Source of the DNA: an uncultured Acidobacteriota bacterium
GTDB lineage: Bacteria; Acidobacteriota; UBA6911; RPQK01; JAPXNP01
NCBI GenBank assembly: GCA_963777605.1
Contig: CAVZRV010000007.1
Coordinates: 288,001 to 352,000 of the forward strand
Direction: 5' to 3'
DNA length: 64,000 nt
Shown: piece after piece, positions 143 through 33,138 of the stretch
Layout: every line of letters begins with the position of its first letter
How positions within the stretch are numbered: the stretch's first letter is position 1
Position numbers and translations under genes: made by a program
The notes under the pieces: model-generated
Seen by the model: only the letters and a program-made list of their open reading frames with translations
Told to the model about the DNA's origin: nothing
Databases searched by the model: none

Positions 143-176
143 GTACTAATACTTGAAAGAGGGTAACCATAAGAAT

Positions 177-353
177 ATGAGCAAGATGGATATCGAAGTG
201 GCCGCCAAAGATCGACGGCGGTTTGTCAAGCGATTGGCAATTGGAGTAGGGTTGTCCATACCAGTGGTTGTCACCCTGACGAACCGGAAATTGGCGGCGC
301 AATCCGGACCCGGACCTACGGCAACACCGTCACAGACTCCCACTCTAGACTAA
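177..353 (+). CDS. small putative RiPP-like precursor / Tat-like secreted peptide (58 aa)
   Basis: MSKMDIEVAAKDRRRFVKRLAIGVGLSIPVVVTLTNRKLAAQSGPGPTATPSQTPTLD: RRxF-x-K motif, hydrophobic stretch, AxA-like site, T/P/S-rich tail; purine-rich RBS at 155-164; ends 18 nt before the PqqD gene. Confidence 0.75.
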   Translation: MSKMDIEVAAKDRRRFVKRLAIGVGLSIPVVVTLTNRKLAAQSGPGPTATPSQTPTLD

Positions 354-371
354 CCGACAACCAGCTCGGAT

Positions 372-650
372 GTGACTGTGGAGATTTCTTTCGACTGCTG
401 TCCGAGAGTGGCTGAACGAATTGTCGAGCAGGTGGCGGAGGATGAGTTGGTCCTTTATGACCCTGCTTCTGATCAGGTTCATATTCTCAACACATTCGCC
501 GCGGCAATTTACGATCTGTGTGATGGCAGCACGTCTATCTTTTCGATCGTCGCCGAACTCGAGAAAGTGATTGCATCCCCCGCATTCGATCTTGCAGAGG
601 AAACCCGCCGACTTGTCGCATCACTCGTGGACAAAAAGATTCTTGAATAG
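372..650 (+). CDS. stand-alone PqqD-family / RiPP recognition element (RRE) protein
   Basis: 92 aa with the typical PqqD pattern DELVLYDP...VHILNTFAAAIYDLCDG...LVASLVDKKILE. Confidence 0.9.
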   Translation: MTVEISFDCCPRVAERIVEQVAEDELVLYDPASDQVHILNTFAAAIYDLCDGSTSIFSIVAELEKVIASPAFDLAEETRRLVASLVDKKILE

Positions 651-1461
651 GAGTGTACGAGTCAGCCTTGAGTCCGTTCACGAACCTGGCAGCCTCGATC
701 AATTGTTTGGGCCTCTCCCGACAGCTCATCACTCGGAACTGGAATACACTATCCAGGAGTTATCGAGTGGTCACATAGCAGTGATTCCGGCCGCAGGAGG
801 CCAACCTCTTTCCGTGAGCAGCCTCCCCGAGGCGTTTTACGCGCTGGAAAGCGACTTCTACAATAATATCCTCTGTAAAGACACATCGACGTTGATTATT
901 CATGCGTCGGCGGTCGTTCACGTGACGACCCGCCAGACTATTGTGCTCCCCGGGGCCAGCCACTGTGGGAAGAGCACTCTGGCGGCGGCCCTGGCAGCAT
1001 CAGGCCGTTTTCTCTACCTCGGTGAAGAAGCCATTGGCCTCGACTGCACAAGCAACCGGTTGTTGTCCTACACCAAACCGGTCAAACTGCGCTTCGGGGC
1101 CGAGCACCGGATTCTGGCGGACGGCTCATGGCCGTGCCTACGAGTTTCGTCGCTCAACTTTACTTACGCAATTCCACCTCAGCCCGTCATCGCGACTGAG
1201 GTCGATCCAGAAGTGCCGTTTCTGTTCGTTTTTCCAACCTTCGCAGCCTCTGTCAAGGCTACCTTGGAAAGAGTTTCTCCAGCTATGGCAATCGCCAAGC
1301 TGGCCACCTATTCGGTCAACCCACCTCAGTTCCTAACATCCCACCTGGAAACCGTCTCGGTCCTCCAGCCGGGAAGAGCATCGTGGGACCTCACCTGGTC
1401 CTCCTGGGAGGAAGTCGTGAAGGAAATCGACTGTCTGTGCTTCTCTGGGTGGAACCGCTGA
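571..1461 (+). CDS. HprK-related serine/threonine kinase (P-loop), HPr-rel/lasso-kinase type; true start uncertain (TTG 571 or TTG 703)
   Basis: IIHASAV motif, Walker A GASHCGKSTLAAAL, LYLGEE at the usual LSDE/D position, YTKPVKLR. Confidence 0.75.
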   Translation: MHPPHSILQRKPADLSHHSWTKRFLNRSVRVSLESVHEPGSLDQLFGPLPTAHHSELEYTIQELSSGHIAVIPAAGGQPLSVSSLPEAFYALESDFYNNILCKDTSTLIIHASAVVHVTTRQTIVLPGASHCGKSTLAAALAASGRFLYLGEEAIGLDCTSNRLLSYTKPVKLRFGAEHRILADGSWPCLRVSSLNFTYAIPPQPVIATEVDPEVPFLFVFPTFAASVKATLERVSPAMAIAKLATYSVNPPQFLTSHLETVSVLQPGRASWDLTWSSWEEVVKEIDCLCFSGWNR

Positions 1462-1536: not shown

Positions 1537-3894
1537 ATGACCTGGGACCACGTGTCGTCGAATCTGTTGCTCCTGCTGAGTTGGTACGGTGCACTGACCG
1601 TTCTCCAGGTCGCCGCACTTCCGCTGACAGCTTCCGTTTTCCGGCGGCTCCCCGATGGTGGATCTTCCCTCTCAAAATTGACCGGGCTGGCTGTGACCGG
1701 GTTCGTCCTCTGGTCGGCCTGGGCCTATGGTCTAGTCGCCAACGACCGGAGTGCGGCCTGGTCCACGGCGGTCGTTGTCGGCGTCGCCTGTTGGGCGATT
1801 CAACTTGCCGTTGACCGCCAGGCGCTCGTCGCATGGATTCGCAGCCACCTGCCGTTGATCGCGGTTTGCGAGCTGGTATTTCTGGCGGGTTTTCTAACGC
1901 TGGCAGCGATCCGCACGATAGCGCCGCAGGTTCGGCACACTGAGCAGCCGATGGATCTCATGATGCTGACCAGCCTTTGGAGCAGCCCTGAATACCCTCC
2001 CCACGACGCCTGGCTCAGCGGATTTCCGGTCTCCTACTATTACTTCGGCTACTGGCTTCAACTCCTCGCAGGCCGCCTTTCCGGAATCGCCCCGGACATC
2101 ACATACAACCTCGGGCTTGCGACCCTCTTCGGTTTCCTCACAGCCGGACTGTTCGGCCTCGGATTCAACCTCGTACGCAGTTCCTGCCTGCGGTCTTCAG
2201 CCCGCTTGCGGTCGTCTTACACGGGTGGCTTCCTGGCCGTTGTCCTGACTGCCTGCGCGGGGAATTTTCGCTCCTTATACGACCTGGCCGTTCACGCTTC
2301 TCACCTCGACAGGTGGTGGTGGCTAAGCAGTCGCGCCCTCCACGACGTTGCACCGAACGGTGTTACCCGGCCCGTGATCACCGAATTTCCCGCCTTCAGC
2401 TACCTGCTGGGGGACAATCACCCTCACCTGCAATCGTCTTCTCTTCTGCTCATGGCAGCCGCGGTGGCAATGAGCCGCATGATGTCGTCAGACGCAAGCG
2501 TCAAGAGAGTACGGCCGGGACTCACGAGATTGTCATTCAGTGCCGGGACCTTCCTCGAGTCTGTACTCTTCCCCGCGTTTGTTCTGGCGGCCGTCACTGC
2601 CACGAACTCCTGGGATGCTCCCGTTGCGTTCGCCCTGGTTTGCCTCGGCTGCTGGTTCTCGAAGAACGGATCGGCCTGGTCGAAGCTGGCGCGAGTCGGG
2701 ATCCGTTGTGCCGGGATCGCCGCGGTGGCATTGCTCATGCTCACGCCGCTGTTGCAAACCCTGCGGGGAAAGGTGTTCGGGATTCTCCCCAACCTGTTCA
2801 ACTCAAGCGATCCGCTCCGGTTTCTCTCGGCGATGGGGCCTGGATTTCTGGCCACTTGCGCGCTCCTCTTCGTGCTCTACCGACGCCGGGCCGGATGGCG
2901 ATCGGCCGCCTGGATCGGAGGACTCGCCTTGTTGGCGCTGGTGGGCATTGCACTGGTTACGCTGAACGCAATGGCCAGCCCTCAGTGGAACAATTGGCTG
3001 AACCAACTTGGCCTCGATCCGTCCCTGCCTTTCTGGCCGCTTGCTCTTCGGCGATGGGCGCTCCATTTCCTGGTGGCCGGCGGCCTGCTCGTTGCTCTCG
3101 GAGTCGTCCTCTCGCAGAGAATCAAGGGGCGGTTTAGGCGGGAAAATGTCGGGCTCCAGATGGGCCTGATTTTGACGGTGGTCTCGATATGCCTTTTGCT
3201 TGCCCCCGAGTTGGTTTTCGTTCACGACATTTTCCATTACCGGGTCAATACTGTTTTCAAATTGCATTACGGTGCCTGGATCCTGCTGGGCCCGGTCGGG
3301 GCATACGCCTTGACGCGACTGGCTGCAACCCGTCGGCACCGAGGAAAACTTTGCCTGCTCGGCTTTGCCTCGTCGGCTGCCCTGCTCTACCCTCTCTTCG
3401 CATTTTGGCCCCTAACTTTCGGGAACGTTCCACCGCAATACACACTTTCCGCGAAGGCGGCACTGGGGGAGACCGAACCTCAGCTTCTCGATGCACTTGA
3501 GTGGATCGACAGCCACACACCGCATGACGCGGTCGTCGTGGAAGCCCCCGGGGCGGCTCAAGATCCTCTTTCCTGCCCGGTCAGCACCTATACGGGAAGA
3601 GCGACTCTCCTCGGCTGGCAGGACCACGAATTACAGTGGCGTCCGGAGCAACTCGACTCGGTCTTCACTGAACGAACCCGGGCCCTCGAATCGATTTATC
3701 GAACGGAGTCTGCTTCGATGATTGAAGCTCTGGCGGGCCGTTACGAGATCAACTTCATCGTCCAGGGCCCCCGTGAACGGGTCCGGTACGGAGATGAATC
3801 AAAGGGACTCGAACGGCTGGGTGCGCCCGTCTTCCAGAGCAAGACTTACCGGGTCTACGCAACCGGTCGCAGGAAAGCGGGATTCGAGCGGTGA
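1537..3894 (+). CDS. DUF2298 / Chlor_Arch_YYY polytopic membrane protein, probable GT-C glycosyltransferase
   Basis: TEQPMD, PPHDAWLSG..SYYYFGY, ITEFPAFSYLLGDNHPH, NTVFK, TGRATLLGW.HE.QWR; many TM helices. Confidence 0.85.
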   Translation: MTWDHVSSNLLLLLSWYGALTVLQVAALPLTASVFRRLPDGGSSLSKLTGLAVTGFVLWSAWAYGLVANDRSAAWSTAVVVGVACWAIQLAVDRQALVAWIRSHLPLIAVCELVFLAGFLTLAAIRTIAPQVRHTEQPMDLMMLTSLWSSPEYPPHDAWLSGFPVSYYYFGYWLQLLAGRLSGIAPDITYNLGLATLFGFLTAGLFGLGFNLVRSSCLRSSARLRSSYTGGFLAVVLTACAGNFRSLYDLAVHASHLDRWWWLSSRALHDVAPNGVTRPVITEFPAFSYLLGDNHPHLQSSSLLLMAAAVAMSRMMSSDASVKRVRPGLTRLSFSAGTFLESVLFPAFVLAAVTATNSWDAPVAFALVCLGCWFSKNGSAWSKLARVGIRCAGIAAVALLMLTPLLQTLRGKVFGILPNLFNSSDPLRFLSAMGPGFLATCALLFVLYRRRAGWRSAAWIGGLALLALVGIALVTLNAMASPQWNNWLNQLGLDPSLPFWPLALRRWALHFLVAGGLLVALGVVLSQRIKGRFRRENVGLQMGLILTVVSICLLLAPELVFVHDIFHYRVNTVFKLHYGAWILLGPVGAYALTRLAATRRHRGKLCLLGFASSAALLYPLFAFWPLTFGNVPPQYTLSAKAALGETEPQLLDALEWIDSHTPHDAVVVEAPGAAQDPLSCPVSTYTGRATLLGWQDHELQWRPEQLDSVFTERTRALESIYRTESASMIEALAGRYEINFIVQGPRERVRYGDESKGLERLGAPVFQSKTYRVYATGRRKAGFER

Positions 3895-5762
3895 TCCGGA
3901 CTAATGCTCTCAGCAAACACGAGTGGGCTGGATGGGGACTCCTTCTCGCCATCGGAATCTGTTCCCACTTCGTCGGCCTTGGGGATCGCGTTCTCAGTTA
4001 CGACGAGTCCGTCCACGCCTTCTATTCCTACCGACTGGCTGAAACAGGCTCCTATATCCACTCGCCGGTAACCCACGGCCCGCTGCTGTTCTACCTCAGT
4101 GCCCTTGTCTTCCTGTTGTCCCCTGCCACCGACTTCACGGTCCGGCTGATTCCAGCAATTGCCGGGTCTGGGCTCGTAGTCATGCCATTGCTGTTCCGAA
4201 GATGGATCGGCGCCGGAGCGGCTTTCGCAGCCGGCCTGCTCATTACGGCGAGTCCCCTCCTGCTCTATTTCGGGCGATACCTTCGAAACGATATCTACAT
4301 CCTCGTGCTTCTGCTGGCCTGGGTTTTCGCGATCTTTCGCTTTCTGGAAACACCCCGCCTGAGCCTGCTCTACTCACTCACCATCGCAATGGCGCTCTCC
4401 TTTGCCTGCAAGGAAGTCAGCTTTATTTCGGCTTCCCTGATTTTTCCGTTCCTGCTCATCATGGCGGCTTTGAACCGGCAACACGATCCACTTCCATCCC
4501 TGCAACTCAGCATTCTGCATTTCACCCTGCTTCTCCCCCTCTCGATGCCCCTGGTACTGCGATTGACCGGATTGGAGGCCACCCGCGTCTGGCTTGAGAA
4601 CCATCCCCGGTGGGGACTTGGTTCCTCGATTCTCGGCATCCTGGTTTCCGTCGTGATCGCTTTCCTCGCAACCAGCCGAATCGCCCGGGCGGGAGGAGTT
4701 CTCACATTCCGAAACTGGCTCAAGGCGGCCGCTCTCTTCTGGCTGATTCTCGGATTCTACTTTTCGACCTTTCTCAAGAACCCTCCGGGGCTCTTCACAG
4801 GACTGTTCCAAGGCCTCAATTACTGGCTGAGCCAGCACCACGTTGAACGCGGTGGTCAACCCGTCTACTACTACCTCATCCTGCTCGGTCTCTACGAATT
4901 CATCGTTGTCCTTTTGAGCATCGGCAGCCTCGGGTCACTGGCCGTGAAGGTCATGCAACGCGGTGCCCGCAACTGGCTCAGCGGTCTCACGGAGAAGCCG
5001 GGGGAGCGCTTCAACGTTTTTTGCGTCTGGTGGGGAATCGGAAGCCTCCTCGCGTACTCAGTCGCCGGAGAAAGGATGCCCTGGCTTGCGGTTCACATTC
5101 TCTTGCCATTCATCTTCCTGTCGGCAGGGATGATTTCCTCCCGACTGAACCGGATTCGCTCGGCTGGTCACCTGCCGAGAAACCCGCTGTTGATCCTCGG
5201 ACTGATTCTGACCGGAGTGATTGCGGTCCTCGGTCTTCGCACGAGCGTTCAGCTCAACTTCGTCAACGGCGGCCTCCCTGTTGAGCCGGTCGCTTACGCC
5301 CAGGGAGGACCCGCAGCACCCGAATTGGCCGCCAAGATCCGGGGATTTGCCCACAAGGGAACACAGGTCGCCATTGATAACCGGGTAGCGTGGCCCCTGT
5401 CCTGGTACCTGCGGGAAATCGCGCCCAACTGTCGAACCGGCGACTTCGCGGCGGGAGTCCCGCTCGAATTCGGCCTCCTGGTCAGTGCCTCCCCTGGACC
5501 GGGCAACGGGCTCGAGTCGAACGACTGGCGTCTTTTGTCACAGGGCCCCGTGCTCTGGTGGCCCATCCACGACTACCGACGGCTCTATGCTTCGCAAACC
5601 GGTGCGGGCTCGCTCCGAGAAGGACTGGTCACGTTTTGGGAAGTCTTTTACAATCGCCATTTTCAAGGACTGGCAATCGAATCCTGGCCCGCTCGTCAAG
5701 ACGCTTGGCTTTATGACAGGACCGCAACTCACCGCCGCCATCGCCTGGCTCCTTCTGATTGA
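3891..5762 (+). CDS. TIGR03663 (Agl23-like) PMT/GT-C family membrane glycosyltransferase
   Basis: LGDRVLSYDESVHA, HSPVTHGPLLFY, RYLRND, CKE, YWLSQH..RGGQPVYYY, GERMPWL..H, WPLSWYLR; GTGA overlap with the previous stop. Confidence 0.85.
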   Translation: MIRTNALSKHEWAGWGLLLAIGICSHFVGLGDRVLSYDESVHAFYSYRLAETGSYIHSPVTHGPLLFYLSALVFLLSPATDFTVRLIPAIAGSGLVVMPLLFRRWIGAGAAFAAGLLITASPLLLYFGRYLRNDIYILVLLLAWVFAIFRFLETPRLSLLYSLTIAMALSFACKEVSFISASLIFPFLLIMAALNRQHDPLPSLQLSILHFTLLLPLSMPLVLRLTGLEATRVWLENHPRWGLGSSILGILVSVVIAFLATSRIARAGGVLTFRNWLKAAALFWLILGFYFSTFLKNPPGLFTGLFQGLNYWLSQHHVERGGQPVYYYLILLGLYEFIVVLLSIGSLGSLAVKVMQRGARNWLSGLTEKPGERFNVFCVWWGIGSLLAYSVAGERMPWLAVHILLPFIFLSAGMISSRLNRIRSAGHLPRNPLLILGLILTGVIAVLGLRTSVQLNFVNGGLPVEPVAYAQGGPAAPELAAKIRGFAHKGTQVAIDNRVAWPLSWYLREIAPNCRTGDFAAGVPLEFGLLVSASPGPGNGLESNDWRLLSQGPVLWWPIHDYRRLYASQTGAGSLREGLVTFWEVFYNRHFQGLAIESWPARQDAWLYDRTATHRRHRLAPSD

Positions 5763-8175
5763 AGGACTGGCACTCCTGGCATTCCCTCTCCTTTTGCCGG
5801 TCACACGAAACCTGCCGGACAAGGGTTGGCTCCTGTCCAAGCCGGCAGGTCTTCTGCTGATTGGCTATCCAGCCTGGCTTCTGGGGAATCTCTATTCCGA
5901 AGGCTTTTCAAGAGTCTCCATTGCAGCGGTGCTGACGCTTGCCCTGGTTGCGGCCGTCGCCTGGGCCTGGCGACATCGCGCCCGGCCCGCGAAAAGGAGG
6001 ATGGACCTGGTCACGACCCTGGTCCTGCCGGAACTGGTCTTTCTCGGAACCTTCCTTCTTTTCCTCTTGCTACGGCTGTTCGACCCGGAACTTTGGAACC
6101 CGGTTTCAGGCGGTGAGAAGCCGATGGACTTCTCGCTCCTCAATGCCTGCATCCGGAGCGATCACCTCCCCCCCGAAGCGCCCTGGCTCTCAGGCCACCC
6201 GGTCAATTACTACTACTTCGGCTACGTGCTGTTCAGCATCCCATCCAAGCTCCTGGGTATTCCGGCCGAATATGCCTACAACCTCGCGCTGCCGACAGTC
6301 GCCGCGTTGACGGCCGCGGCGGCATTCACAATCGTTCAGTCGATTCAATCCCGTCACGAGCCCATTGCAGTCCCGGGGTGCAGGAAGAGTCTGGTGGCGA
6401 AGCAGGCGATCCTTTGGGCCGGCCTCGGTCCCCTCTTCGTGGCTCTGATCGGGAACCTGTTCGAGGCGAGGCTGCTCCTTTCGGGCCTGAAGAAGCTCGG
6501 GGCCGACAATGTCGCAACTGGAATTCCGGTCCTTGGGTCTCTCTGGTCGGTCGTCACAGGAGCAGGCAGACTAATCGACGGCACTGCCACCTGGCCCTAC
6601 CGGGCAGCTTCCTTTTACTGGAGCGCCACTCGCGTGATCCCCGCCCACGGCAAGGAAGTTCCTCCCATCACCGAGTTCCCGTTCTTCTCGTTGCTCTACG
6701 GTGACCTTCACCCTCACCTGATGGCCCTGCCCTTCACGATGCTGTTCATCGGCCTTGCCGTCGCAGCAGTGCTCCACCGCAGGGGATCCTCCAGGTTACC
6801 TTTTTCGGAGTCCGCCTGGCTGGCTGTGTCGCTGACGGGGATCCTCCTGATCCACCCCTGGAACGTCCCCTTGAGCGTCTTCATCCTGGTCCTCCTGCTT
6901 TGGACGATTGCAGAACCGGGCCATCGAGGGGGACTTGCACGTCTGCGGGGAGCCGCGACCAACTCGACGTTGGTGATCGTCTCAGCCCTGATCTTTGCGG
7001 CTCCCTTCCTCGTCCATTACGCCGTACCGGTCGCCCATCCCGCCGCGTGGCTTGGGACTCAGACTCCACTGGGCGTGTTCTGGGACATCTTCGGCCTCTT
7101 TCTGGCCCTGATCGTGACCGCCGGGATCTTCCGTCTCCGGGATCGCCCCTTGGAGGGATCTCTGGAAGAACCGGGAGTTCGCGTCTCCGTCCTCCTTTTG
7201 CTCGTCGCAGTTGCAATCTGGCTGGATTGGACCGATTATCCCCTGACTTCGGCTGCGGCGCTCGTGGCGGTCCTGATCGTCGCCGGCTCGCTGCGAGTCA
7301 TGCTCAAGGATCCCAACCCTGAGGATCGAATCCCCTGGGCACTCGTGATCACGGGCTCGATCGGCATCGTCATCAGCGAAACACTGACATTCGGAAACGG
7401 TGTGGGGCACATGAACACCGTGTTCAAGTTCTACTACCAGGTCTGGTTGTACTGGGCACTGGCGGCTGCCGCCCTCTCTCCGGAAGTGTTCCAGCGGTTA
7501 ATGTCGCTGCCTGGGAGGTGGTTGCGCATCGGCGCCTGTACCGGGTTTCTTGCTCTCCTTGCCGCGAGCTGCCTTTATCCTCCCTTTTCACTCTACGGCA
7601 AGATGGCGGGACGCTGGTCCAAATCTGTCCCGAATCTTGACGGCAGCCTGTTCATGGAAAGCGCGCGGCTTCCCCTCGGCGATATCCTGCTCCCGCTTCG
7701 GCCCGACCTCGAGGGGATCAGGTGGCTGAAACAAAACGTGCCCGACGCGAAAACATTGGTTGAAGCCGCCGGCTCCGACTACAGTTGGGCGGGAAGGATC
7801 AGTTCCAGCACCGGGATACCAACCGTGATCGGCTGGCCTTCCCACGTTCTCCAGCACCATCCCCAGCTTACCGCCGGAGAAGTTGACGACCGGGTTGAGG
7901 CAGTGAGAGAGATCTATGAATCGATCGACGTCGAATCAATCCTGCCTCTGCTGCGGCGATTCAACATCGGGTACATCTATGTCGGCCCCCTTGAACGCAA
8001 GACCTACGCCCCTGATGGCCTCCGGAAGTTCGACCAGCCGGCACCGGGCGTCTGGGAGCCGGCCTATATCGGATCGGGCACCCGGATCCTCCGAATCACC
8101 ATCAACGACGTGCCCTCGAAAGTCGAACCAGAAGGAACGCGCTCCGGAGCACACCGACAACCAATCGACCACTGA
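5713..8175 (+). CDS. second DUF2298 / Chlor_Arch_YYY membrane protein (GT-C-like)
   Basis: GGEKPMDF, PWLSG..NYYYFGY, ITEFPFFSLLYGDLHPH, MNTVFKFYYQ, TGIPTVIGWPSH; ATG at 5713 precedes the first TM helix (ORF track starts at 5485). Confidence 0.85.
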   Translation: MTGPQLTAAIAWLLLIEGLALLAFPLLLPVTRNLPDKGWLLSKPAGLLLIGYPAWLLGNLYSEGFSRVSIAAVLTLALVAAVAWAWRHRARPAKRRMDLVTTLVLPELVFLGTFLLFLLLRLFDPELWNPVSGGEKPMDFSLLNACIRSDHLPPEAPWLSGHPVNYYYFGYVLFSIPSKLLGIPAEYAYNLALPTVAALTAAAAFTIVQSIQSRHEPIAVPGCRKSLVAKQAILWAGLGPLFVALIGNLFEARLLLSGLKKLGADNVATGIPVLGSLWSVVTGAGRLIDGTATWPYRAASFYWSATRVIPAHGKEVPPITEFPFFSLLYGDLHPHLMALPFTMLFIGLAVAAVLHRRGSSRLPFSESAWLAVSLTGILLIHPWNVPLSVFILVLLLWTIAEPGHRGGLARLRGAATNSTLVIVSALIFAAPFLVHYAVPVAHPAAWLGTQTPLGVFWDIFGLFLALIVTAGIFRLRDRPLEGSLEEPGVRVSVLLLLVAVAIWLDWTDYPLTSAAALVAVLIVAGSLRVMLKDPNPEDRIPWALVITGSIGIVISETLTFGNGVGHMNTVFKFYYQVWLYWALAAAALSPEVFQRLMSLPGRWLRIGACTGFLALLAASCLYPPFSLYGKMAGRWSKSVPNLDGSLFMESARLPLGDILLPLRPDLEGIRWLKQNVPDAKTLVEAAGSDYSWAGRISSSTGIPTVIGWPSHVLQHHPQLTAGEVDDRVEAVREIYESIDVESILPLLRRFNIGYIYVGPLERKTYAPDGLRKFDQPAPGVWEPAYIGSGTRILRITINDVPSKVEPEGTRSGAHRQPIDH

Positions 8176-8818
8176 CCTGCAGACCGGCACCGCTGTGACG
8201 GGGAACCCAGTGAACCGGGAGCTCCAAAGTCCGCCACCCGTCACGGGCGGCAAATCCGCTCAGGATCACGTTGGGTGCAAATGCAGTTGATGGAATCAGG
8301 GGAAGATAACTGTCGAGGAAAGGCCTCCGCATCAGCCTGAACGGGCAGTTCACGTCCCGAAACCGGGAACCAAAACAAATTCTGGAGGAGACTCCTGCCA
8401 TCCGGGAGAGCCCGCTCCTGGCCACACTCAAGTTCCGGCCCATCCGGCAACCCAACAGGAAGTCATAGCTGTCCCTGGACCGCCAGAAGGCCGGGAAGTC
8501 CGATGGAATAACTTCTCCGTCACTGTCGATCTGCAACACCCATTCGGCGCAGGATTCCGTGTAACCCCGAAGAACAGCGGGGCCGTGCCCCATGTTTGGG
8601 TGCGAGCGGACCGTAAGTTCGTGGAATGGTTCCCTCAGTTCTGAGAGCAAATCGGGAGTCCGGTCGGTGGACCCGTCATCGAGCACGATCATCTCGAACT
8701 GAACTCCGGCCCCACGCAACAAGCGGCACCACTGTTCCACCGTCGTCGCAATTACCGATTCCTCGTTGTAGACGGGCATCACCACCGAAAGTTCTTCGGC
8801 AGCTCTCTCTGCGTTCAC
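8102..8818 (-). CDS. GT2 family polyprenol-phosphate glycosyltransferase (DPM1-like)
   Basis: SVVMPVYNE, DDGSTDRT, NMGHGPA, IDSDGE, DVNCPFRLMRR. Confidence 0.9.
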   Translation of the reverse strand: MNAERAAEELSVVMPVYNEESVIATTVEQWCRLLRGAGVQFEMIVLDDGSTDRTPDLLSELREPFHELTVRSHPNMGHGPAVLRGYTESCAEWVLQIDSDGEVIPSDFPAFWRSRDSYDFLLGCRMGRNLSVARSGLSRMAGVSSRICFGSRFRDVNCPFRLMRRPFLDSYLPLIPSTAFAPNVILSGFAARDGWRTLELPVHWVPRHSGAGLQVSGRLVVGVLRSAFLLVRLSRARR

Positions 8819-8854: not shown

Positions 8855-10624
8855 TCAGGGATCTCCCGAGATATTCGCGTCGTCATGCATCAATTCCAGC
8901 ACCTCCACTCGCAGGTTGGGACCGGGCCTCTCCACCTCCGACAGAGAGTCGAAAGGAAGGAAGAACCCGTCGATAATGTCCCAGCTTGCGGATTCCGCCC
9001 CTGTAGTCGAGATGAAGTCAGCCTGCCTGAGAACGTGGCCCTGCCATTTGGAGAGTTCCCCGGCCGGCGAGTTACCCAGTTCGAGGGGGTGCCAGGAGGT
9101 CACCCTCACGATCCGACTTCCCGATATATCGCCGGGCTGCGGGAACCGGTAAACCTCCCGGCCCTGGCTTCCGATATCAGGATTGGTTAACTGGTCACGA
9201 TAGAGCCGTGAGATGAAATCCCCGGCGCTCGCGCCATAGCGCCTCGAAACGTACTCCATTCGCCGTGCCAGGGAATCCGGGCTCTCCAGGATCTGGGGCT
9301 CCGATTCAGGCCCGCAGAGGAGCACGATCGGCGTCTCTTGGCTCACGTTGTCCCGGATCCACTGGCCCGCCAGGGCGCGAGTGTCCGTCTTCGAAAGCAG
9401 CCCATCCAGTCGAACCGACCTCGCCACCGAACCCGCGAAGCTGACCGTCAACAATACGGTCAGGACGGTTTTGGTCAGCCTGCGGTCGAGTGCGTTGAAA
9501 AGATCGGCGAATCCTTTCCCTGCCAGAACCGCCAGGAAGGGCAAAATCGGCAGGAGGTAGCGAAACGGGACGGGATGTTGAAACGGCACCAGCGCCAGCA
9601 GGTGCAGCAAAACGAAACCCGCCAGGAAGACCGTCGCTTTCCGGCCCCGGGGCACCGCGAAAGCGAAAACCACACCGGCGCCCGCCAATCCCAGTCCCAG
9701 CAACTCTCCCGGACCGAACTGGAGCGGCCGCAGAATTCGCCCCAGCGAAAGCCCGACACTCCAGGGAGGATCTCCCTCTTGCCACAAGTAGAAGATTTTC
9801 AAGATGGAAAACAGTTCGGAGAGGGCTGCCCGGAAGTTCGGAATGATGTATGGGTTGAGCAGAAAGAAGAGTGCCAGGGGGACGATCGCGATGATCGCCA
9901 AGTGCCTCAGGCGGTCTTGCCAGGAGCGTTCGAGGCCGGATGTAAAGAGGTCGGCCAGGGCGATACGGGGGCCCATCAGCAGGGCCGTGTACTTGCAGGC
10001 GGCCGCCAGTCCGAACAGAGCCGAAGACATCACGAGAGTCCCGGGTTCCCCATTCTCCTGGTACCGCAGGAAGTAAAGCGCGCACAAGGAAAGGAAAAGT
10101 ACCATCGGAGTATCCGTGACCCCAAAATGGGCATCCCGGACCGCGAGCGGGGCACACGCAAAAAGCCCGGCCGCAGCGAGAGCCCCGGTCTCCGAAGTCA
10201 GACGACGGCCGATCTTGAAAACAACCCCTATCGTCGCGGTACCGCAGAGGACCGATATCCAGCGCGGGATCAGGAAGTAGGCATCCTGGAAGCGGGCGAA
10301 ATCGGCCACGAGGCTGCTCGACGCAGGCTCGCGAAACAGAGTAGCAACCCAGTAGTAGAGGTGATACAGGATTGCGGTCACCTCGGATACAAGGGCCGGG
10401 TAAACGTAAAAACGGGGATCCCCCAGCCTTTCGAACAGGTGAAGAGCCGGTTCGACGATCAGGCTCTCATCGGGACGCACGTATAGGTTGGAAAGAATCG
10501 GGGTCCCGAATCCCACTCCCCAGGCTCTGAGTATGAACCCGGCGATCACAAGAATCGCCAACACAATGAGATCGGCCGCACCCCCCCTCCACCCTTTGGG
10601 TTGCGGCGGGACGGGCCCCATCAC
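8855..10624 (-). CDS. ArnT/PMT-like (GT39/GT83) membrane glycosyltransferase
   Basis: RPDE, YPAL, R..SVLCG, AHFGVTD, GLAAACKY, RYLLPILPFL; GGAGG RBS before GTG 10624 (ORF track extends to 10798). Confidence 0.85.
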   Translation of the reverse strand: MMGPVPPQPKGWRGGAADLIVLAILVIAGFILRAWGVGFGTPILSNLYVRPDESLIVEPALHLFERLGDPRFYVYPALVSEVTAILYHLYYWVATLFREPASSSLVADFARFQDAYFLIPRWISVLCGTATIGVVFKIGRRLTSETGALAAAGLFACAPLAVRDAHFGVTDTPMVLFLSLCALYFLRYQENGEPGTLVMSSALFGLAAACKYTALLMGPRIALADLFTSGLERSWQDRLRHLAIIAIVPLALFFLLNPYIIPNFRAALSELFSILKIFYLWQEGDPPWSVGLSLGRILRPLQFGPGELLGLGLAGAGVVFAFAVPRGRKATVFLAGFVLLHLLALVPFQHPVPFRYLLPILPFLAVLAGKGFADLFNALDRRLTKTVLTVLLTVSFAGSVARSVRLDGLLSKTDTRALAGQWIRDNVSQETPIVLLCGPESEPQILESPDSLARRMEYVSRRYGASAGDFISRLYRDQLTNPDIGSQGREVYRFPQPGDISGSRIVRVTSWHPLELGNSPAGELSKWQGHVLRQADFISTTGAESASWDIIDGFFLPFDSLSEVERPGPNLRVEVLELMHDDANISGDP

Positions 10625-10875
10625 AGGGTTACGCCTCCTCGCCGATGCCCGCATCGGCTGCGTCGGCGACGCCTTGATCTGGACCCCGACGCGCTCGCAA
10701 CAGGTGCGTGCGAATTTCTGACTTAGGACACTGGTCCGCTGAAGCATGAATCGCTCGGATTCTAGCCTCTCCCCCTGCGATATGGAAGTCCGGGACACCG
10801 TCCGTTTCCGGCCGTCCGGACTCTACCCGCCGTCAGTGGGCCTGCGGTATGTTCGCCTGGTCCCGCCTGATTGAC

Positions 10876-12309
10876 CTAGCGGAAGCCGGTTAGCCTGAAC
10901 ACAAAAACGTTCCCGCCCGAAGCAGGCCCGGGAGTGATCTCGGGAACGTCGATTTCGATTCCCCGGTTGGTCTCCTTCCAGGGCAAGGGCCCCTCTCTGC
11001 CCACCATCCGAACTTCCGCTCCCCCGGCAGGTTGTGGTTCGGAGAGCACGAGGCGGCTCCCCGGGAGTCCCAGGACCAGGGCAAAAACAACCCCGTTCTT
11101 CTCGGTGTATCGAACCTGTCGCGTCTTCGGATGGGGAGTCTTCCAGCCACCGTCGGTGATGATCTGGACCGCTTCAGGATGGGGAATCTCGGGCCCGTCC
11201 TCGGACACCCGCCACGGACGCGTTCCGTAGATCGCCTCCCCGTTCACCTTGAGCCACCGCCCAATCTCGACCAGGCGCTCCTGCATGATGACCGGGATAC
11301 GACCGTCCCCTGTCGGCCCCACACAGAGAAGCAGGTTCCCTCCCCGCGCGACTGTGTCCACCAGGAGGTGGACCAACTGCGCCGTGGTGCTGTAATCGTC
11401 GATCGATTCATTCCGGTTGTAGCCGTAGGAATGTCCCATCCCCCGGTTCTCTTCCCATTTGTGCGCCGATCCGAGATCGGCCTTGGTGTAACCTCCGTAC
11501 TCGAGAGTGTAGAAGCCGCCGTGCTGCCCCCGGGTGTCCTTCCCCCAACGGTCATTGACAACCACATCGTCCCTAACCGACGAGTCGTTGAACAACCAGG
11601 CCAGCAATTCCGGCGTCTTCCAGGTGGCACTGTCCTGTTCCCACTCTCCGTCGGCCCACAACACCGAGGGGTGGTAGGTTTCGACGAGATTCTTGACCTG
11701 CGGGTGCAGGTGTTCTGCTACGAAGCGGGGCAGATCGAAACGGTAGTCGGGATGGAACCACTCGTAGAGCGAGTAGTAGTAGCCCATCCGAAGTCCCCGC
11801 GCGCGCACCGCTTCGGTGAGGTCGCAGACCAAGTCCCGGTGAGGCCCCACATCGACGCTGTTCCAGTTCCATGCGAACGGGCTTGGCCAGAGACAGAACC
11901 CGTCGTGATACTGGGCCGTCATCACAACGTAGCGGGCGCCGGCACGGGCGAAGAGTTCGGCCCAGTCCGAGGGATTGAAGAGTTCCGCTCTGAAGCGGCT
12001 CGCGAGATCCTGGTATTGAACACCTTCCCCGTACACCTGACGGTGAAACCGGTTCACCGGGCTGTCCGGCCGCAGCAACCACTGCCAGTACCACTCGGCA
12101 TAATCGGTCTTCGGGCTCCAGGACGGGACGGAGTAGACGCCCCAGACCACGAAGATCCCAAATTTGGCATCGTCGTACCACGCCGGCATGGGGCGGCTGT
12201 CGAGGGATGCCCAGTCGGCCCGGTAACGCGTCTGCGCCGGCAAGTGAACCAGCACCAAAGAGAGAACCACTGTCACGGCGACAAGTACGGCGGGTCTGAG
12301 GGTACGCAA
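10876..12309 (-). CDS. alpha-L-fucosidase, GH29, with signal peptide
   Basis: WASLDSRPMPAWYDDAKFGIF..WGVYSVP, EWYW, YHDGFCLWPS, LWADG, NDRWG, GGNLLL.VGP; strong RBS AGGAGGAG before TTG. Confidence 0.92.
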   Translation of the reverse strand: MRTLRPAVLVAVTVVLSLVLVHLPAQTRYRADWASLDSRPMPAWYDDAKFGIFVVWGVYSVPSWSPKTDYAEWYWQWLLRPDSPVNRFHRQVYGEGVQYQDLASRFRAELFNPSDWAELFARAGARYVVMTAQYHDGFCLWPSPFAWNWNSVDVGPHRDLVCDLTEAVRARGLRMGYYYSLYEWFHPDYRFDLPRFVAEHLHPQVKNLVETYHPSVLWADGEWEQDSATWKTPELLAWLFNDSSVRDDVVVNDRWGKDTRGQHGGFYTLEYGGYTKADLGSAHKWEENRGMGHSYGYNRNESIDDYSTTAQLVHLLVDTVARGGNLLLCVGPTGDGRIPVIMQERLVEIGRWLKVNGEAIYGTRPWRVSEDGPEIPHPEAVQIITDGGWKTPHPKTRQVRYTEKNGVVFALVLGLPGSRLVLSEPQPAGGAEVRMVGREGPLPWKETNRGIEIDVPEITPGPASGGNVFVFRLTGFR

Positions 12310-12469
12310 GGGTATCTCCTCCTTCTCACAACCCCCAGGCTCCTGAAGAAAACACCCCGGAGGTACAGAGACGATCTTTTGGTCACCTCATTCTGGCCCG
12401 AACAGGTCCTCAAGAAAAGCCCCGAGCGGTTTCTTCTATACTGGGATGGTTTTGGCAAGAGCGGCAGCT

Positions 12470-14059
12470 ATGAACGACGGGCCACTGGTGGAGGTGAGGA
12501 AGCTTTCCGTCAATCTCGAGGGCCGCGTCTACTTCGAGAACACGGACTGGACTATCAACCGGGGTGAACACTGGGCCGTGGTCGGCCCGACCGCTTCGGG
12601 CAAATCCATCCTGATCAAGGCTCTCTGCCGGGAACTTCCCCTGTACGATGGGACGGTCCGGTACTTTTTCAAACCTTTCGGTGCGCCAAGGTCATTTATT
12701 CACCGCGGAGAGATCATCCGGGTGACACCCGAAGCCGAGGCAGAGCTCAGAGGCGCCAGGCATGGCTATCACCAGGCCCGCTGGCACAGCTTCGAAGGAG
12801 CGAATTCCCCGAGAGTGACGGAGATCCTGACTGGCGAAAATATCGAGAGAGTTTCTTCCTACGACATCACGCCGCTTCGACGTTCCCGCCAGGAGTACGA
12901 GCGGGAGCGCGAACGAGTCGTCGCCTTGCTGGGGCTCGAGGGCCTGATGGAAAGGAAGGCCTTCCAGCTATCTCATGGGGAGGCACGCAAGGTCCTGATT
13001 GCACGTGCGCTGATGCAGTCCGCTGCAATCCTGGTCCTGGATACTCCTTTTGGAGGCCTCGACCAACACTCACGCCTCCAACTGAAAGGCATCCTGGAGC
13101 GATTGCTGGCCGAAGCCACGCCCACGATCCTCATCCTGACCAGCAGTCGAGAGGATCTTCCGGAAGGTATCACTCACCGGGCCGAGGTATCGGGAGGCCG
13201 GATCGTCAAATTGTCCCGGATCAACGACGATGCGTCTTCCCTTGTCGAACACGTTGATTTTGCGGGCCGGACGGAACGCGGCGAATTCGACTCTCCGAAG
13301 GTCTTCAGAGACTTTGCGACGGTGACAACTCCCGGGACTCAGCTTCCCACCGGTGACCCTGGTGATACGACTGTCGTAGAGCTCAGGGGAGTCAATGTAA
13401 GCTACGGTCCGGTCCGGGTGCTTTCGGAAGTGAGCTGGACGGTCCGCCGGGGAGAGAGATGGGCGCTGCTCGGCCCCAATGGAGCCGGCAAGAGCACCCT
13501 GTTGAGCGTGATCCTGGCCGACAATCCCCAAGCCTATGCCAACCAGGTTCGGATCTTCGGGCGACGGCGGGGGAGCGGGGAAACCATTTGGCAGATCAAG
13601 AGGCGAATTGGCTGGGTCTCTCCGGAACTCCAGAGCCACTATCCGCCGACAACACCCTGTCGGGCGGTCGTCGAGTCCGGACTTCACGACAGCATCGGGT
13701 TGTATTCGTCCGGTCGGCCCGAGGATTCGGGCCGAGTTGACGAACTCCTGGGCGCGATCGGGATTGAACAGGTTGCTGGGCGGCCCTTTGGGGCGGTCTC
13801 TACTGGAGAACAGCGTCTTGTACTTCTGGCCCGAGCGCTGCTCAAGGAACCGGAGTTGCTGATCCTCGATGAACCCGTCCAGGGCATGGACGGGCCGCTT
13901 CGAGACCGGCTTAAGGCATTCCTCGAGGCCTACTGTAGGTCGCTCCCGGTTACGCTGATCTATGTGACACATGTCCCGTCGGAAATTCCCGGTGTGGTTG
14001 AGCATACTCTCCGGCTGGAAGAAGGCCGTGTTCTGCCCGGATCGGATGCGGTAGACTGA
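12470..14059 (+). CDS. dual-domain ABC ATPase, ModF-like
   Basis: two Walker A motifs (GPTASGKS, GPNGAGKS), LSHGE/VSTGEQR signatures, GRRRGSGETIWQIKRRIGWVSPE typical of ModF, LILDEP. Confidence 0.85.
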   Translation: MNDGPLVEVRKLSVNLEGRVYFENTDWTINRGEHWAVVGPTASGKSILIKALCRELPLYDGTVRYFFKPFGAPRSFIHRGEIIRVTPEAEAELRGARHGYHQARWHSFEGANSPRVTEILTGENIERVSSYDITPLRRSRQEYERERERVVALLGLEGLMERKAFQLSHGEARKVLIARALMQSAAILVLDTPFGGLDQHSRLQLKGILERLLAEATPTILILTSSREDLPEGITHRAEVSGGRIVKLSRINDDASSLVEHVDFAGRTERGEFDSPKVFRDFATVTTPGTQLPTGDPGDTTVVELRGVNVSYGPVRVLSEVSWTVRRGERWALLGPNGAGKSTLLSVILADNPQAYANQVRIFGRRRGSGETIWQIKRRIGWVSPELQSHYPPTTPCRAVVESGLHDSIGLYSSGRPEDSGRVDELLGAIGIEQVAGRPFGAVSTGEQRLVLLARALLKEPELLILDEPVQGMDGPLRDRLKAFLEAYCRSLPVTLIYVTHVPSEIPGVVEHTLRLEEGRVLPGSDAVD

Positions 14060-33061: not shown

Positions 33062-33138
33062 CGGGGCATGGCGCAGTCCGGTAGCGCGCCTGCTTTGGGA
33101 GCAGGATGTCGGGGGTTCAAATCCCTCTGCCCCGACCA
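33062..33138 (+). tRNA. tRNA-Pro (UGG)
   Basis: CGGGGCATGGCGCAGTCCGGTAGCGCG-CCTGC-TT-TGG-GA-GCAGG-ATGTCGGGGGTTCAAATCCCTCTGCCCCGACCA; TGcTATACT -10 at 33042-33050. Confidence 0.97.

Follow-up and report, generated by a model that had tools for sequence, protein, structure and literature searches.

A short conserved gene with twin-arginine signal anatomy as candidate precursor of a PqqD/HprK-like kinase cassette in an uncultured acidobacterium

The open reading frame at 177-353 (+) of the window, that is, of the whole 64,000-nucleotide stretch of an uncultured Acidobacteriota genome analyzed here, probably (about 0.6) encodes the precursor of a linear modified peptide related to the Linear Polyphosphorylated Peptides (LPP), with a leader that has the anatomy of a Tat signal; we infer its export, its binding and its modification. 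Observed directly are the gene, its conservation, the synteny of its locus, and the domain identities of its neighbors, as well as the TatC and signal peptidase I genes of the genome. The enzyme trio of the locus (a RiPP recognition element or RRE, an HprK-like kinase, and an NTP-transferase) has been catalogued outside Bacillota as the "HPr-rel-A system", without a modelled substrate family, and the only linear products of the trio described as characterized are the LPPs, reported in 2026 (PMC13381572).

The precursor gene

The gene runs from an ATG at 177 to a TAA at 351-353 and comprises 58 codons plus the stop; start, stop and length agree with an earlier sequence-only reading of this DNA. 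Its product is MSKMDIEVAAKDRRRFVKRLAIGVGLSIPVVVTLTNRKLAAQSGPGPTATPSQTPTLD. A purine-rich stretch, AAAGAGGG, at 156-163 (+), 13 nt 5' of the ATG, is a candidate Shine-Dalgarno-like element. Positions 1-176 make up the bulk of the 204 nt that separate the precursor operon from the divergent NTP_transf_5 gene upstream; no sigma-70 consensus site was found in 1-176, and the promoter and terminator scan was at chance level and uninformative.

Orthologs of the precursor were found at the same position in three genomes of a sister genus (G002, G010, and G014). Among these and the window the leaders are conserved and the Pro/Thr tails are variable, as had been expected of a conserved leader joined to a variable core; the frame, the length, and the Pro/Thr/Ser/Gly-rich nature of the tail are nevertheless kept. 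The 34-codon leader showed a dN/dS of 0.03-0.35 in all six pairs, at a dS of 0.67-2.7. Given orthologs at the same position in three genomes and this leader dN/dS, the precursor ORF is a real gene under purifying selection and not a chance frame. It has also been called in other assemblies, as P0001 (64 aa, "hypothetical protein") and, with over-long starts, as P0008 and P0009. When longer fused versions of this peptide were sought, only the latter two turned up, which are the same gene. We found no paralogs of the peptide, the PqqD protein or the kinase in the window's own genome, and the peptide profile, run against metagenomes, matched 298 pattern stretches, none of them confirmed.

Leader, cleavage site, and core

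The Tat n-region has the consensus S/T-R-R-x-F-L-K. The motif DRRRFVK at residues 12-18 (210-230, +), already likened to it by the sequence-only reading, matches in RR, F, and K and has V in place of L; R13, R14, and F16 are invariant in a seven-sequence alignment. It is followed by an h-region, L20-L34 (234-278, +), of 15 uncharged residues with a mean Kyte-Doolittle value of 2.34, which contains the hydrophobic pattern G..IPVVVTL noted before. From its pattern, the c-region would span T35-A41 (T-N-R-K-L-A-A; 279-299, +), with the basic pair R37-K38 and the small-x-small triplet L-A-A, and a signal-peptidase I site is predicted after A41, where the sequence indeed reads KLAA|QS, as had been proposed.

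In the window and in each of the 29 free-standing relatives the signal lies at the N-terminus; in 10 fused relatives it is internal, after PqqD. The uncharged h-region measures 12-18 residues in 27 of the 29 free-standing forms (21 and 30 in the other two). A basic residue after the h-region marks Tat signals: Lys or Arg directly follows it in 23 of the 29 free-standing precursors, and a basic residue is kept there in only two of the 10 fused forms. A small-x-Ala site with Ser or Thr two residues on was present in 33 of the 39 sequences compared; these are not independent of one another, and the A-x-S/T motif is short and loosely defined.

With TIGR01409, the curated Tat HMM, the leader scored 14.2-14.5 bits, below the cut-off of 16.7, and ranked 75th of the 88 matches (E<=1) in its own genome, 59 of which are over the cut-off; the Pfam model TAT_signal (PF10518, cut-off 22.7 bits) gave no match to the leader. 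One relative (L019) clears TIGR01409 with 19.2 bits, and the leader profile itself retrieves ordinary RR signals at the starts of long ORFs in 17 of the 26 other loci inspected. A 121-aa RR-signal protein with a Pro/Thr/Ser linker, encoded beside an amidase-like gene (L054), has no PqqD and was judged unrelated. The genome encodes TatC (220.2 bits) and two sigpep_I_bact proteins of about 163 bits each, on contigs C29 and C30.

The predicted core (300-350, +) starts with Q-S-G and continues into the variable Pro/Thr-rich tail. It has 17 residues, one fewer than the 18 previously counted after KLAA; its composition is as described (four Thr, two Ser, four Pro, and no Cys or aromatic residues). 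The A-Q-S at the predicted cleavage site is invariant in the four orthologs, and the C-terminal residue varies (D, D, G, and S). The core had also been proposed as a target for O-phosphorylation or O-glycosylation. Both are reasonable guesses, since an HprK-like Ser kinase, NTP_transf_5, and GT-C and GT2 proteins are encoded next to it. The emphasis on mucin-like Thr residues fared less well: by analogy with LPP, the one characterized relative, the likeliest phospho-acceptor would be Ser43, at the leader/core junction, rather than the Thr residues of the tail.

Neighboring genes

The precursor is the first gene of an operon with a PqqD-type RRE and an HprK-like kinase. Only 18 nt separate it from the PqqD gene (372-650, +; 92 aa), whose product matches PF05402 with 36.6 bits (cut-off 23.4) and TIGR04353 with 26.4 bits, below the cut-off of 35; among solved chains, lasso B1 RREs come nearest to it (5v1u at E 3e-6). 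The gene for the HprK-related P-loop kinase (592-1461, +) overlaps the 3' end of the PqqD gene, and its start is uncertain (TTG at 571, 592 or 613). It matches TIGR04352 at E 1.7e-15 with 56.9 bits, below the cut-off of 200. A structure model (pLDDT 78.9) predicts a PEPCK / HPr(Ser) kinase fold, and a PDB search with the kinase profile alone matched only the P-loops of ABC proteins. The NTP_transf_5 gene lies 204 nt upstream of the precursor, divergent on the minus strand and outside the window (L001 10827-11972; G000:C7:286827-287972), and scores 107.2 bits with PF14907 (cut-off 31.2). The genome has a second PF14907 gene (C27:83723-84997), with no PqqD, kinase or RR-ORF nearby.

Downstream of the kinase we found four GT-C-type membrane proteins and one GT2. 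The first is a polytopic membrane protein of the DUF2298 / Chlor_Arch_YYY type (1537-3894, +; 785 aa), for which a PDB search by sequence gave no match; in G002 and G010 there is a 4-nt overlap between its gene and the kinase stop. It is followed by an Agl23-family / PMT_2 (GT-C type) membrane protein (3891-5762, +; TIGR03663 265 bits, PF13231 41.2 bits) and by a second DUF2298 / Chlor_Arch_YYY protein (5713-8175, +) whose start is uncertain, the frame being open from 5485. Convergent with the operon are a family-2 glycosyltransferase of 238 aa (8102-8818, -; PF00535 E 1e-20) and, on the same minus strand, a PMT_2 (GT-C type) membrane glycosyltransferase of 647 aa (8855-10798, -; PF13231 72.2 bits), both syntenic in all three sister genomes.

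Together these genes form a nine-gene, 13-kb block (NTP_transf_5, then precursor-PqqD-kinase-DUF2298-Agl23-DUF2298, then GT2-PMT_2) that is syntenic in all four genomes. Its proteins share 32-52% identity with those of the three sister-genus genomes, and the short precursor 67%; the two genera that retain the block have diverged almost to saturation at synonymous sites. GT-C genes were seen next to the cassette in no genomes but the four of this bacterial family; the other loci end at NTP_transf_5.

Recurrence across phyla and fusions to PqqD

The sequence-only reading had suggested looking for short homologous ORFs near PqqD genes. Such ORFs are present, in front of PqqD. A cross-phylum harvest gave 24 loci, one of them truncated; in 19 of the 23 assessable loci a twin-arginine-type ORF lies on the same strand upstream of PqqD and the kinase. 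The 14 sphingomonad loci are one lineage. Because an RR pattern was used to find the RR-ORFs of the harvest, the statement that all have RR is partly circular. An automatic filter placed such an ORF upstream on the same strand in 18 of the 24 loci, against 3 of 24 for the opposite strand and 5 of 24 for the downstream side. Four of the 23 loci, sphingomonad ones of the HPr-rel-A type, had no twin-arginine-type ORF within 5 kb. Two genomes flagged as unpublished (G018 and G202) count only in tallies such as that of the leader-profile matches, and no sequence or specific claim rests on either.

The layout of small twin-arginine-type ORF, PqqD, kinase, and NTP_transf_5 was also found in loci L006 and L007. 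Within the phylum, it was present in four of the 11 long-coverage kinase loci examined, and the RR-ORF was absent in the other seven within the approximately 1.5 kb examined on each side. The only locus retrieved with the kinase profile in a metagenome scan (L098) has a different kinase and neither PqqD nor an RR-ORF, and was set aside. A sphingomonad locus (L020) that clears both curated cut-offs, scoring 232 bits with TIGR04352 and 58.5 bits with TIGR04353, and is therefore a bona fide HPr-rel-A cassette, encodes a 136-aa twin-arginine-type protein directly upstream. When eight putative substrates were scanned against NCBIfam and Pfam, only generic Tat models responded, apart from a single weak NCBIfam match that was off-target and under its cut-off; with no substrate-specific match among the eight, the HPr-rel-A substrate seems to be unmodelled.

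In six proteins (P0002-P0007) PqqD is fused to an RR-leader that continues into a Thr-rich or collagen-like tail, and among the 61 relatives of G087, 12 have fusions of this kind, with NTP_transf_5 or an HprK-like kinase alongside. The RR segment of the fused relatives is not N-terminal, because it follows the folded PqqD domain. Prediction of a complex between the window's PqqD and the precursor gave a score of 0.32, the best control reaching 0.02; of 80 solved complexes, 58 attained this mark, and so did 2 of 110 mismatched pairs; with a score no higher than 0.60, only seven of the 80 did, along with both passing mismatches. The runs share at least 72% of contacts, with a partner pLDDT of at least 50. 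The prediction lends weak support, and the pass may reflect likeness to known structures, as RRE-leader complexes have already been solved.

Proposed route and alternative explanations

In the reading that we favor, the PqqD-type RRE (372-650) would bind the precursor leader in the cytoplasm, and the HprK-like kinase (about 592-1461) would phosphorylate a junction-adjacent Ser or Thr, most likely Ser43 of the invariant A-Q-S. NTP_transf_5 may extend the phosphate, for example with a hexose. The modified peptide would exit through the Tat translocase, and a housekeeping signal peptidase I would cut after L-A-A to release a 17-residue Pro/Thr-rich peptide. In this bacterial family only, the GT-C and GT2 enzymes may O-glycosylate the Thr-rich tail outside the membrane.

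The idea that a single leader serves for both docking and export, put forward by the sequence-only reading, is partly supported. The recurrence of the layout, the fusions, and the weak complex prediction favor it indirectly; the TIGR01409 score is below the cut-off, the signal of the fused relatives is internal, which a canonical Tat signal is not, and the binding and export steps are inferred. A wider version, which is possible although rather doubtful, would have Tat signals double as RiPP leaders across many phyla, with PqqD, free or fused, acting as a Tat "proofreading" chaperone until the kinase and NTP_transf_5 have acted, whereupon export would follow. The phospho(glyco)syl group would then be built on the residue next to the signal-peptidase site, the cargo would range from a five-residue stub to Thr-rich mucin-like, collagen-like, and folded domains, and in this family GT-C enzymes would go on to O-glycosylate the cargo outside the membrane. 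On this wider version the orphan HPr-rel-A cassette would gain its substrate, and there would be a cytoplasmic modification route for secreted bacterial proteins gated by the export signal.

A rival reading takes the segment for a Sec-type signal or an N-in/C-out membrane anchor. The arginines would then be there for RRE binding or the positive-inside rule, and some other route would display or release the Pro/Thr tail; the sub-threshold TIGR01409 score, the missing TAT_signal match, the internal position after PqqD, and the basic c-region residue kept in only two of 10 fusions all fit this. We nevertheless regard it as unlikely, because D-R-R-R-F-V-K is near the consensus, with RR and F invariant across distant groups, an h-region of 12-18 residues falls short of the length of a typical membrane helix and mostly has Lys or Arg after it, and the leader profile retrieves the RR signals of large proteins. 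If the signal is of the Tat type, the gene could also encode an ordinary small Tat-exported protein that merely adjoins an unrelated PqqD/kinase pair, in a genome whose Tat repertoire is large by the TIGR01409 count given above. The 18-nt gap to PqqD, a gene order kept in four of four family genomes and across phyla, and the existence of PqqD-leader fusions make this very improbable, and the frame is out of keeping with that repertoire, as it is open over 67 codons and almost all the other Tat candidates have frames of 280-970 codons. That the ORF is untranslated, a chance frame or a regulatory leader, has its very short length in its favor and is hardly credible in view of the low dN/dS at substantial dS and of the conserved frame, length, and tail character.

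A closer contest concerns the glycan genes. The cassette may only phosphorylate, and perhaps hexosylate, the junction Ser, with DUF2298, Agl23, PMT_2, and GT2 belonging to an unrelated envelope-glycan pathway and the tail left unglycosylated; we put the chances of this a little short of even. On the other side stand the 4-nt overlap of kinase and DUF2298 genes in G002 and G010, the retention of the whole block between two genera despite near-saturated synonymous sites, and the long Thr-rich tails of the fused relatives. Thr-rich tails are classic O-glycosylation substrates. The restriction of the GT-C genes to four genomes, other loci ending at NTP_transf_5, agrees with separate pathways, as does the fact that LPP clusters likewise sit inside polysaccharide loci, a link that is undemonstrated according to the LPP paper (PMC13381572).

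If the small proteins with twin-arginine signals are indeed the substrates, the orphan HPr-rel-A cassette would become directly testable, since a precursor, a likely acceptor Ser, and a cleavage site can each be pointed to. It would also follow that an export signal can act as a RiPP leader, and the odd signal-peptidase-like leader peptidase of LPP would gain a plausible origin. Secreted peptides and proteins would be modified beforehand in the cytoplasm and sent through Tat, the sole pathway tolerating finished cargo. Among the titles and abstracts listed by literature searches we found no report of a natural twin-arginine-type RiPP leader or of an HPr-rel-A substrate, which is not proof of being unpublished.

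Comparison with known systems

The HPr-rel-A system (TIGR04352, HprK-related kinase A; TIGR04353, PqqD family peptide chaperone) has the same three enzyme families in the same order, including an adjacent PF14907 nucleotidyltransferase. Both window proteins score below its models (kinase 56.9 vs. 200 bits, PqqD 26.4 vs. 35 bits), and by these scores the window cassette is a divergent relative of the system and not an equivalog.

In the lasso peptides paeninodin and pseudomycoidin, an HprK-family kinase is described as adding one to several phosphates to a Ser of the precursor, and in pseudomycoidin the uncharacterized NTP-transferase PsmN is reported to be needed to add hexose to the phosphate (PMC6993621). 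The acceptor reported there is the C-terminal Ser (PMC6993621), whereas the C-terminal residue varies in the window family. The PqqD-like B1 RRE is a shared feature, lasso B1 proteins being the nearest solved relatives of the window's PqqD. We rejected the lasso-peptide reading since neither an Asn-synthetase-like cyclase (C) nor a transglutaminase-like B2 protease occurs among the annotated neighbors.

TorD, DmsD, and NapD are Tat proofreading chaperones, which hold the twin-arginine signal until cargo maturation is complete. The window's PqqD may resemble them in concept, as a cytoplasmic protein that holds a twin-arginine signal, but the likeness would be one of analogy only, given that the fold (a PqqD winged helix here) and the cargo (a peptide for phosphorylation vs. 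a cofactor enzyme) are unrelated. A further parallel is offered by the DUF2282 precursors with DUF2063 RREs, which we take to be the "bufferins". In these Sec-signal RiPP precursors, too, an export signal replaces the classical RiPP leader, although the signal is of the Sec type and both enzymes and chemistry are unrelated; that work notes no specific motif recognized by the RRE (PMC12710340), whereas the RR motif is the most conserved element here.

The closest comparison is with LPP (Popov et al., Nat Commun 2026), said to be restricted to Bacillota (PMC13381572). As described there, the precursors measure 35-200 aa and combine a conserved leader with a variable C-terminus, and the proteins acting on them are an RRE, an HprK-like kinase, and an NTP-transferase. 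Ser3 of the core AQSNWK is polyphosphorylated by the kinase, and the leader is taken off by an enzyme of the signal-peptidase type (PMC13381572). Its main text contains none of the terms "twin-arginine", "Tat" or "signal peptide", and on the role of LPP the authors only speculate, naming biofilm (PMC13381572). The published leader motif, YxxPxVLxHQxIxFETxxS, is absent from the window's leader, which has no Tyr or Trp and whose only Pro is P29 in the h-region. LPP is also described as requiring a dedicated archaeal-type SipW-like peptidase, LppS, and an MsbA-like exporter (PMC13381572), where the window leader has twin-arginine signal anatomy instead. In the annotated stretch, which reaches some 8 kb upstream and some 19 kb downstream and includes some unscanned ORFs, we found no LppS-like peptidase and no membrane ABC exporter; the sole ABC protein nearby (12446-14059) carries two ATPase domains but gave no match to a membrane domain. 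The likenesses, as far as LPP is described, are a discrete PqqD-type RRE, an HprK-like kinase, and an uncharacterized NTP-transferase, with no lasso cyclase; a conserved leader with a highly variable C-terminus, in precursors of 35-200 aa in LPP and about 51-178 aa here; leader removal of the signal-peptidase type, which is predicted here; an AQS core start beside the invariant A-Q-S of the window family; and an embedding among glycan-synthesis genes (PMC13381572). The comparison suggests that the window system is an undescribed variant of LPP-type peptide modification.

A short conserved gene precedes PqqD and kinase genes

The short ORF lies on the forward strand of the window, G000:C7:288001-352000, and runs from the ATG at 177 to the TAA at 351-353 (58 codons); a purine-rich AAAGAGGG can be read in the sequence 13 nt 5' of its start. 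The product is MSKMDIEVAAKDRRRFVKRLAIGVGLSIPVVVTLTNRKLAAQSGPGPTATPSQTPTLD. Residues 12-18 are DRRRFVK; the uncharged stretch spans L20-L34 (15 residues) and is followed by T-N-R-K-L-A-A, and the tail contains four Thr, two Ser and four Pro, with no Cys or aromatic residue. The RR motif, uncharged stretch, KLAA and tail composition described in the sequence-only reading were all present in the translated ORF, whose tail is 17 residues long and not 18. The protein database carries the gene three times, as P0001 and, with over-long starts, as P0008 and P0009.

A kinase search of 61 related genomes gave matches in 11 at E ≤ 0.001, the strong ones only in G002, G010, and G014, which belong to one sister genus. 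In each of them a short ORF occupies the corresponding position (MMNQDGESKDRRRFVKRLAIGVGLSAPLLVTLSDRKVVAQSGGPTPTATPGPTPVPD; TSEKRESKDRRRFLRRLAIGAGLSAPLLVTLSDRKVVAQSGGPTPTSTPPG; GLMQDDKRESKDRRRFLKRLAIGAGLTAPVLVTLSDRKVVAQSGGPTPTASATPPPS). That short ORFs near PqqD should share a conserved leader and carry a variable tail had been predicted, and this was found in all three: A-Q-S-G is invariant, and the tails beyond it differ both in length and in sequence and stay rich in Pro/Thr/Ser/Gly. Over 34 leader codons, dN/dS was 0.03-0.35 in 6 of 6 pairs (dS 0.67-2.7), which shows purifying selection on the frame.

The PqqD gene (372-650, forward strand) starts 18 bases after the precursor stop and encodes 92 aa with a PF05402 match at 36.6 bits; the solved chains nearest to a profile of the PqqD proteins are the RiPP recognition elements (RREs) of lasso-peptide B1 proteins (5v1u, E 3e-6). 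The HprK-related kinase gene (~592-1461, forward strand) overlaps its end and matches TIGR04352 at E 1.7e-15 over model positions 74-278 of 280, with a score of 56.9 bits that is far under the equivalog cut-off of 200. When modelled with AlphaFold (pLDDT 78.9), the kinase matched ATP-dependent PEP carboxykinases (TM 0.52-0.58) and, more weakly, HPr(Ser) kinase. PEP carboxykinase and HPr(Ser) kinase have a common P-loop fold. Precursor, PqqD, and kinase are each single-copy in the source genome.

A divergent PF14907 gene ("uncharacterised nucleotidyltransferase", NTP_transf_5, by profile match) lies 204 nt upstream, outside the window. Three membrane proteins are encoded 3' of the kinase on the forward strand (DUF2298/Chlor_Arch_YYY, Agl23-family/PMT_2, and a second DUF2298), and a GT2 and another PMT_2 protein, both profile matches, are encoded convergently on the reverse strand. 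The nine-gene block is collinear in the three sister genomes, with 32-52% protein identity and 67% for the short precursor; there is a 4-nt overlap of the DUF2298 gene with the kinase stop in G002 and G010. The annotated neighbours of the precursor include neither a lasso cyclase nor a B2 protease, and no peptidase or membrane ABC exporter was found among them.

Beyond the NTP_transf_5 gene, 2-3.6 kb upstream of the window, are genes for a 531-aa B12-binding radical SAM protein (locus L001:8570-10165) and a 101-aa RRM-domain RNA-binding protein (L001:10394-10699); tblastn against 15-kb regions taken from the three sister genomes found neither. The source genome has a second PF14907 gene (G000:C27:83723-84997, 177 bits) with no PqqD, kinase, or RR-ORF (an ORF with a twin-arginine-type N-terminus) nearby. 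Past the glycosylation block, and with no apparent link to the precursor, are an alpha-L-fucosidase (10876-12309, reverse), a protein with two DUF3011 stretches (14138-15244, forward), and an AcrB-type RND pump (16271-19372, forward). At gathering threshold, Rfam matches nothing in the window apart from a tRNA gene (33062-33135, forward, 68.1 bits).

The leader as a probable Tat signal

R13, R14, and F16 are invariant in a 7-row leader alignment, and the motif is close to the Tat consensus. An uncharged stretch of 12-18 residues occurs in 27 of 29 free-standing precursors, directly followed by Lys/Arg in 23 of the 29 and, in the three sister-genus peptides, with the basic residue one position later; the pattern Ala-x-Ser/Thr lies 22-43 residues past the RR in 33 of 39 sequences. 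The source genome encodes TatC (220 bits) and two signal peptidase I genes, and Tat is able to carry small unstructured hydrophilic cargo. With the curated Tat models, the precursor leader scored 14.2-14.5 bits in TIGR01409, where the cut-off is 16.7, ranked 75th among the 88 matches of this genome, and had no match to Pfam TAT_signal; L019, a related locus (19.2 bits), is the only relative over the TIGR01409 cut-off. Tat dependence of precursor export is somewhat more likely than not.

The Tat repertoire of the source genome is large, with 88 TIGR01409 matches at E ≤ 1, of which 59 exceed the cut-off. Nearly all of these matches fall in frames of 280-970 codons, and the 67-codon frame of the precursor is among the few short ones.

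A profile of the seven short leaders matched 63 of 401 genomes at E ≤ 0.01, strongly only in the four genomes of the family; at 17 of 26 additional loci listed, the weaker matches fell in RR-type N-terminal segments of frames of at least 226 codons. Both tallies over 401 genomes (leader and kinase profiles) take in two unpublished genomes, G018 and G202, on which no claim rests.

Recurrence of the arrangement

In two genomes from another family of the same order (loci L006 and L007), an ORF of 65-66 aa, which combines an RR-x-F motif with 18 uncharged residues in a row and a short Gly/Ser/Asp tail, stands before a fused PqqD-kinase gene and a gene resembling NTP_transf_5. Just 5' of the precursor, a gene for a conserved protein of ~200-250 aa was seen in three loci of the second short-peptide group (L030:3347-4003, L006:2880-3626, L007:71-676); it has a weak DUF4625 match under the cut-off (E 0.016), and the L030 copy has a signal-like hydrophobic N-terminus.

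The kinase profile matched 105 of 401 genomes of the phylum, mostly by the P-loop alone. Eleven loci, those among 30 listed whose match covered most of the profile, were inspected; four (L072-L075) had an RR-ORF (81-123 aa), PqqD, kinase, and NTP_transf_5, and in the other seven (L076-L079, L085-L087) no RR-ORF was found within ~1.5 kb on each side.

Across phyla, 24 loci were harvested, and 23 were assessable, as L032 ends at a contig end. A twin-arginine-type ORF lay upstream on the same strand in 19 of the 23. Fourteen, all from Sphingomonadales, share one conserved RR-protein family of ~135 aa; the others are MAGs of a betaproteobacterium (96 aa), Campylobacterota (70 aa), Anaerolineales (168 aa), and Acidimicrobiaceae (161 aa), and one labelled Bifidobacterium (178 aa). 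Four sphingomonad loci (L014, L017, L025, L036) had no RR-ORF within 5 kb. An automatic filter gave a same-strand upstream match in 18 of 24 loci. As controls, the opposite strand gave 3 of 24, and a downstream stretch of equal length, with both strands counted, gave 5 of 24. Outside the sphingomonad family, for which homology provides confirmation, the harvest ORFs were picked by their RR pattern, and the loci are not independent, since the sphingomonads are one lineage.

The ~135-aa family lies directly 5' of bona fide HPr-rel-A cassettes (TIGR04352 kinase, TIGR04353 PqqD), and one sphingomonad locus, L020, exceeds both curated cut-offs (232 and 58.5 bits), which places the RR-ORF/PqqD/kinase theme within this catalogued, substrate-less system. 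For eight putative substrates scanned against NCBIfam and Pfam, the only matches were to generic Tat signal models, apart from one weak off-target NCBIfam match under its cut-off; the L020 protein, the family member scanned, matched no model.

Members of this family (L020:4208-4618 and 13 others) combine a twin-arginine-type signal with a Cys-containing mature part, and a glycosyltransferase-like gene (~400 aa) separates them from PqqD in L026, L027, and L031. The Acidimicrobiaceae RR-signal protein (L013:4210-4695), which precedes the kinase, has a Ser/Thr/Gly/Pro-rich middle; near its C-terminus stands L-A-F-T-G, after which come charged residues and a short stretch rich in Ala, Gly, and Ile, a putative motif resembling a sortase sorting signal. 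The interval from this ORF to the kinase showed no PqqD ORF.

PqqD and an RR-type leader in one protein

In L055, a locus with a weaker leader-profile match, an in-frame fusion joins a PqqD domain to an RR segment resembling the precursor leader and bearing a Thr/Pro/Ser tail. Six database proteins (P0002-P0007) have the same build, with Thr-rich repeat tails of up to ~100 residues. A profile of these six matched 12 of 61 relatives of genome G087, often in multiple copies. The PqqD domain is N-terminal (L055:1222-1656, L103:1471-2632, L104:889-2124, L105:1237-2064, L107:1333-1836), and the tails, inspected in 5 of the 12 loci listed, consist of collagen-like repeats of Gly-Pro-Thr or of Ig-like repeats, or are just 5 residues long. 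An NTP_transf_5-like gene lies alongside in L103 and L104 and an HprK-like kinase in L107. The fusion genes often stand in tandem copies.

At the level of sequence, these fusions tie PqqD to an RR-type leader. The leader is internal in them, and the basic residue after the h-region is kept in 2 of 10; the segment would be either a signal working with an N-terminal passenger or a membrane anchor.

Complex prediction from a 10-row PqqD alignment and a 7-row precursor alignment lends weak support to binding of the precursor by PqqD. The median score was 0.32 against 0.02 for the best of three controls. Of 80 solved complexes 58 attained that mark, as did 2 of 110 mismatched pairs; at 0.60 or below it was attained by just 7 of the 80 and by both passing mismatches. 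Contact agreement among runs was at least 72% and partner pLDDT at least 50, and the prediction reported no interface. Likeness to known structures may contribute to the score, because RRE-leader complexes have already been solved.

Proposed pathway and comparison with known systems

Gene content, conservation, and synteny are all that the analysis shows directly; we infer every biochemical step of the following pathway. PqqD would capture the precursor leader in the cytoplasm, the junction Ser would be phosphorylated, and the transferase might extend the phosphate; the peptide would then leave through Tat and be cut by signal peptidase I. We give this reading, of capture, phosphorylation, Tat export, and cleavage of an LPP-like precursor, a probability of roughly 0.6. 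Ser43 is a tentative candidate for the phospho-acceptor, at somewhat below even odds, by a three-residue analogy. In the bacterial family of the window only, GT2-fed GT-C enzymes may O-glycosylate the Pro/Thr tail; GT2 feeding GT-C enzymes is the general logic of such O-glycosylation. Synteny within this one family suggests tail glycosylation, which we consider rather unlikely.

The closest known system is that of the Linear Polyphosphorylated Peptides (LPPs). LPP precursors of 35-200 aa have a conserved leader of the form YxxPxVLxHQxIxFETxxS and C-termini that vary; the kinase adds up to four phosphates to Ser3 of a core starting with AQSNWK, the unphosphorylated precursor is cleaved poorly, the transferase was inactive in a heterologous host, and according to the authors LPPs occur in Bacillota only (PMC13381572). 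The terms "twin-arginine", "Tat", and "signal peptide" are absent from its main text (PMC13381572). For pseudomycoidin, the homologous transferase PsmN is reported to be required for adding one or two hexoses to the phospho-Ser (PMC6993621). The system in the window shares with LPPs the three enzymes, the precursor logic, a signal-peptidase-type cut (here predicted), and the A-Q-S junction. It is not a strict LPP member, because neither a dedicated peptidase nor a pump is among the annotated neighbours, the LPP leader motif is missing, and a Tat-type signal stands in their place. Sec-signal DUF2282 peptides are a precedent for a signal peptide in place of a leader (PMC12710340).
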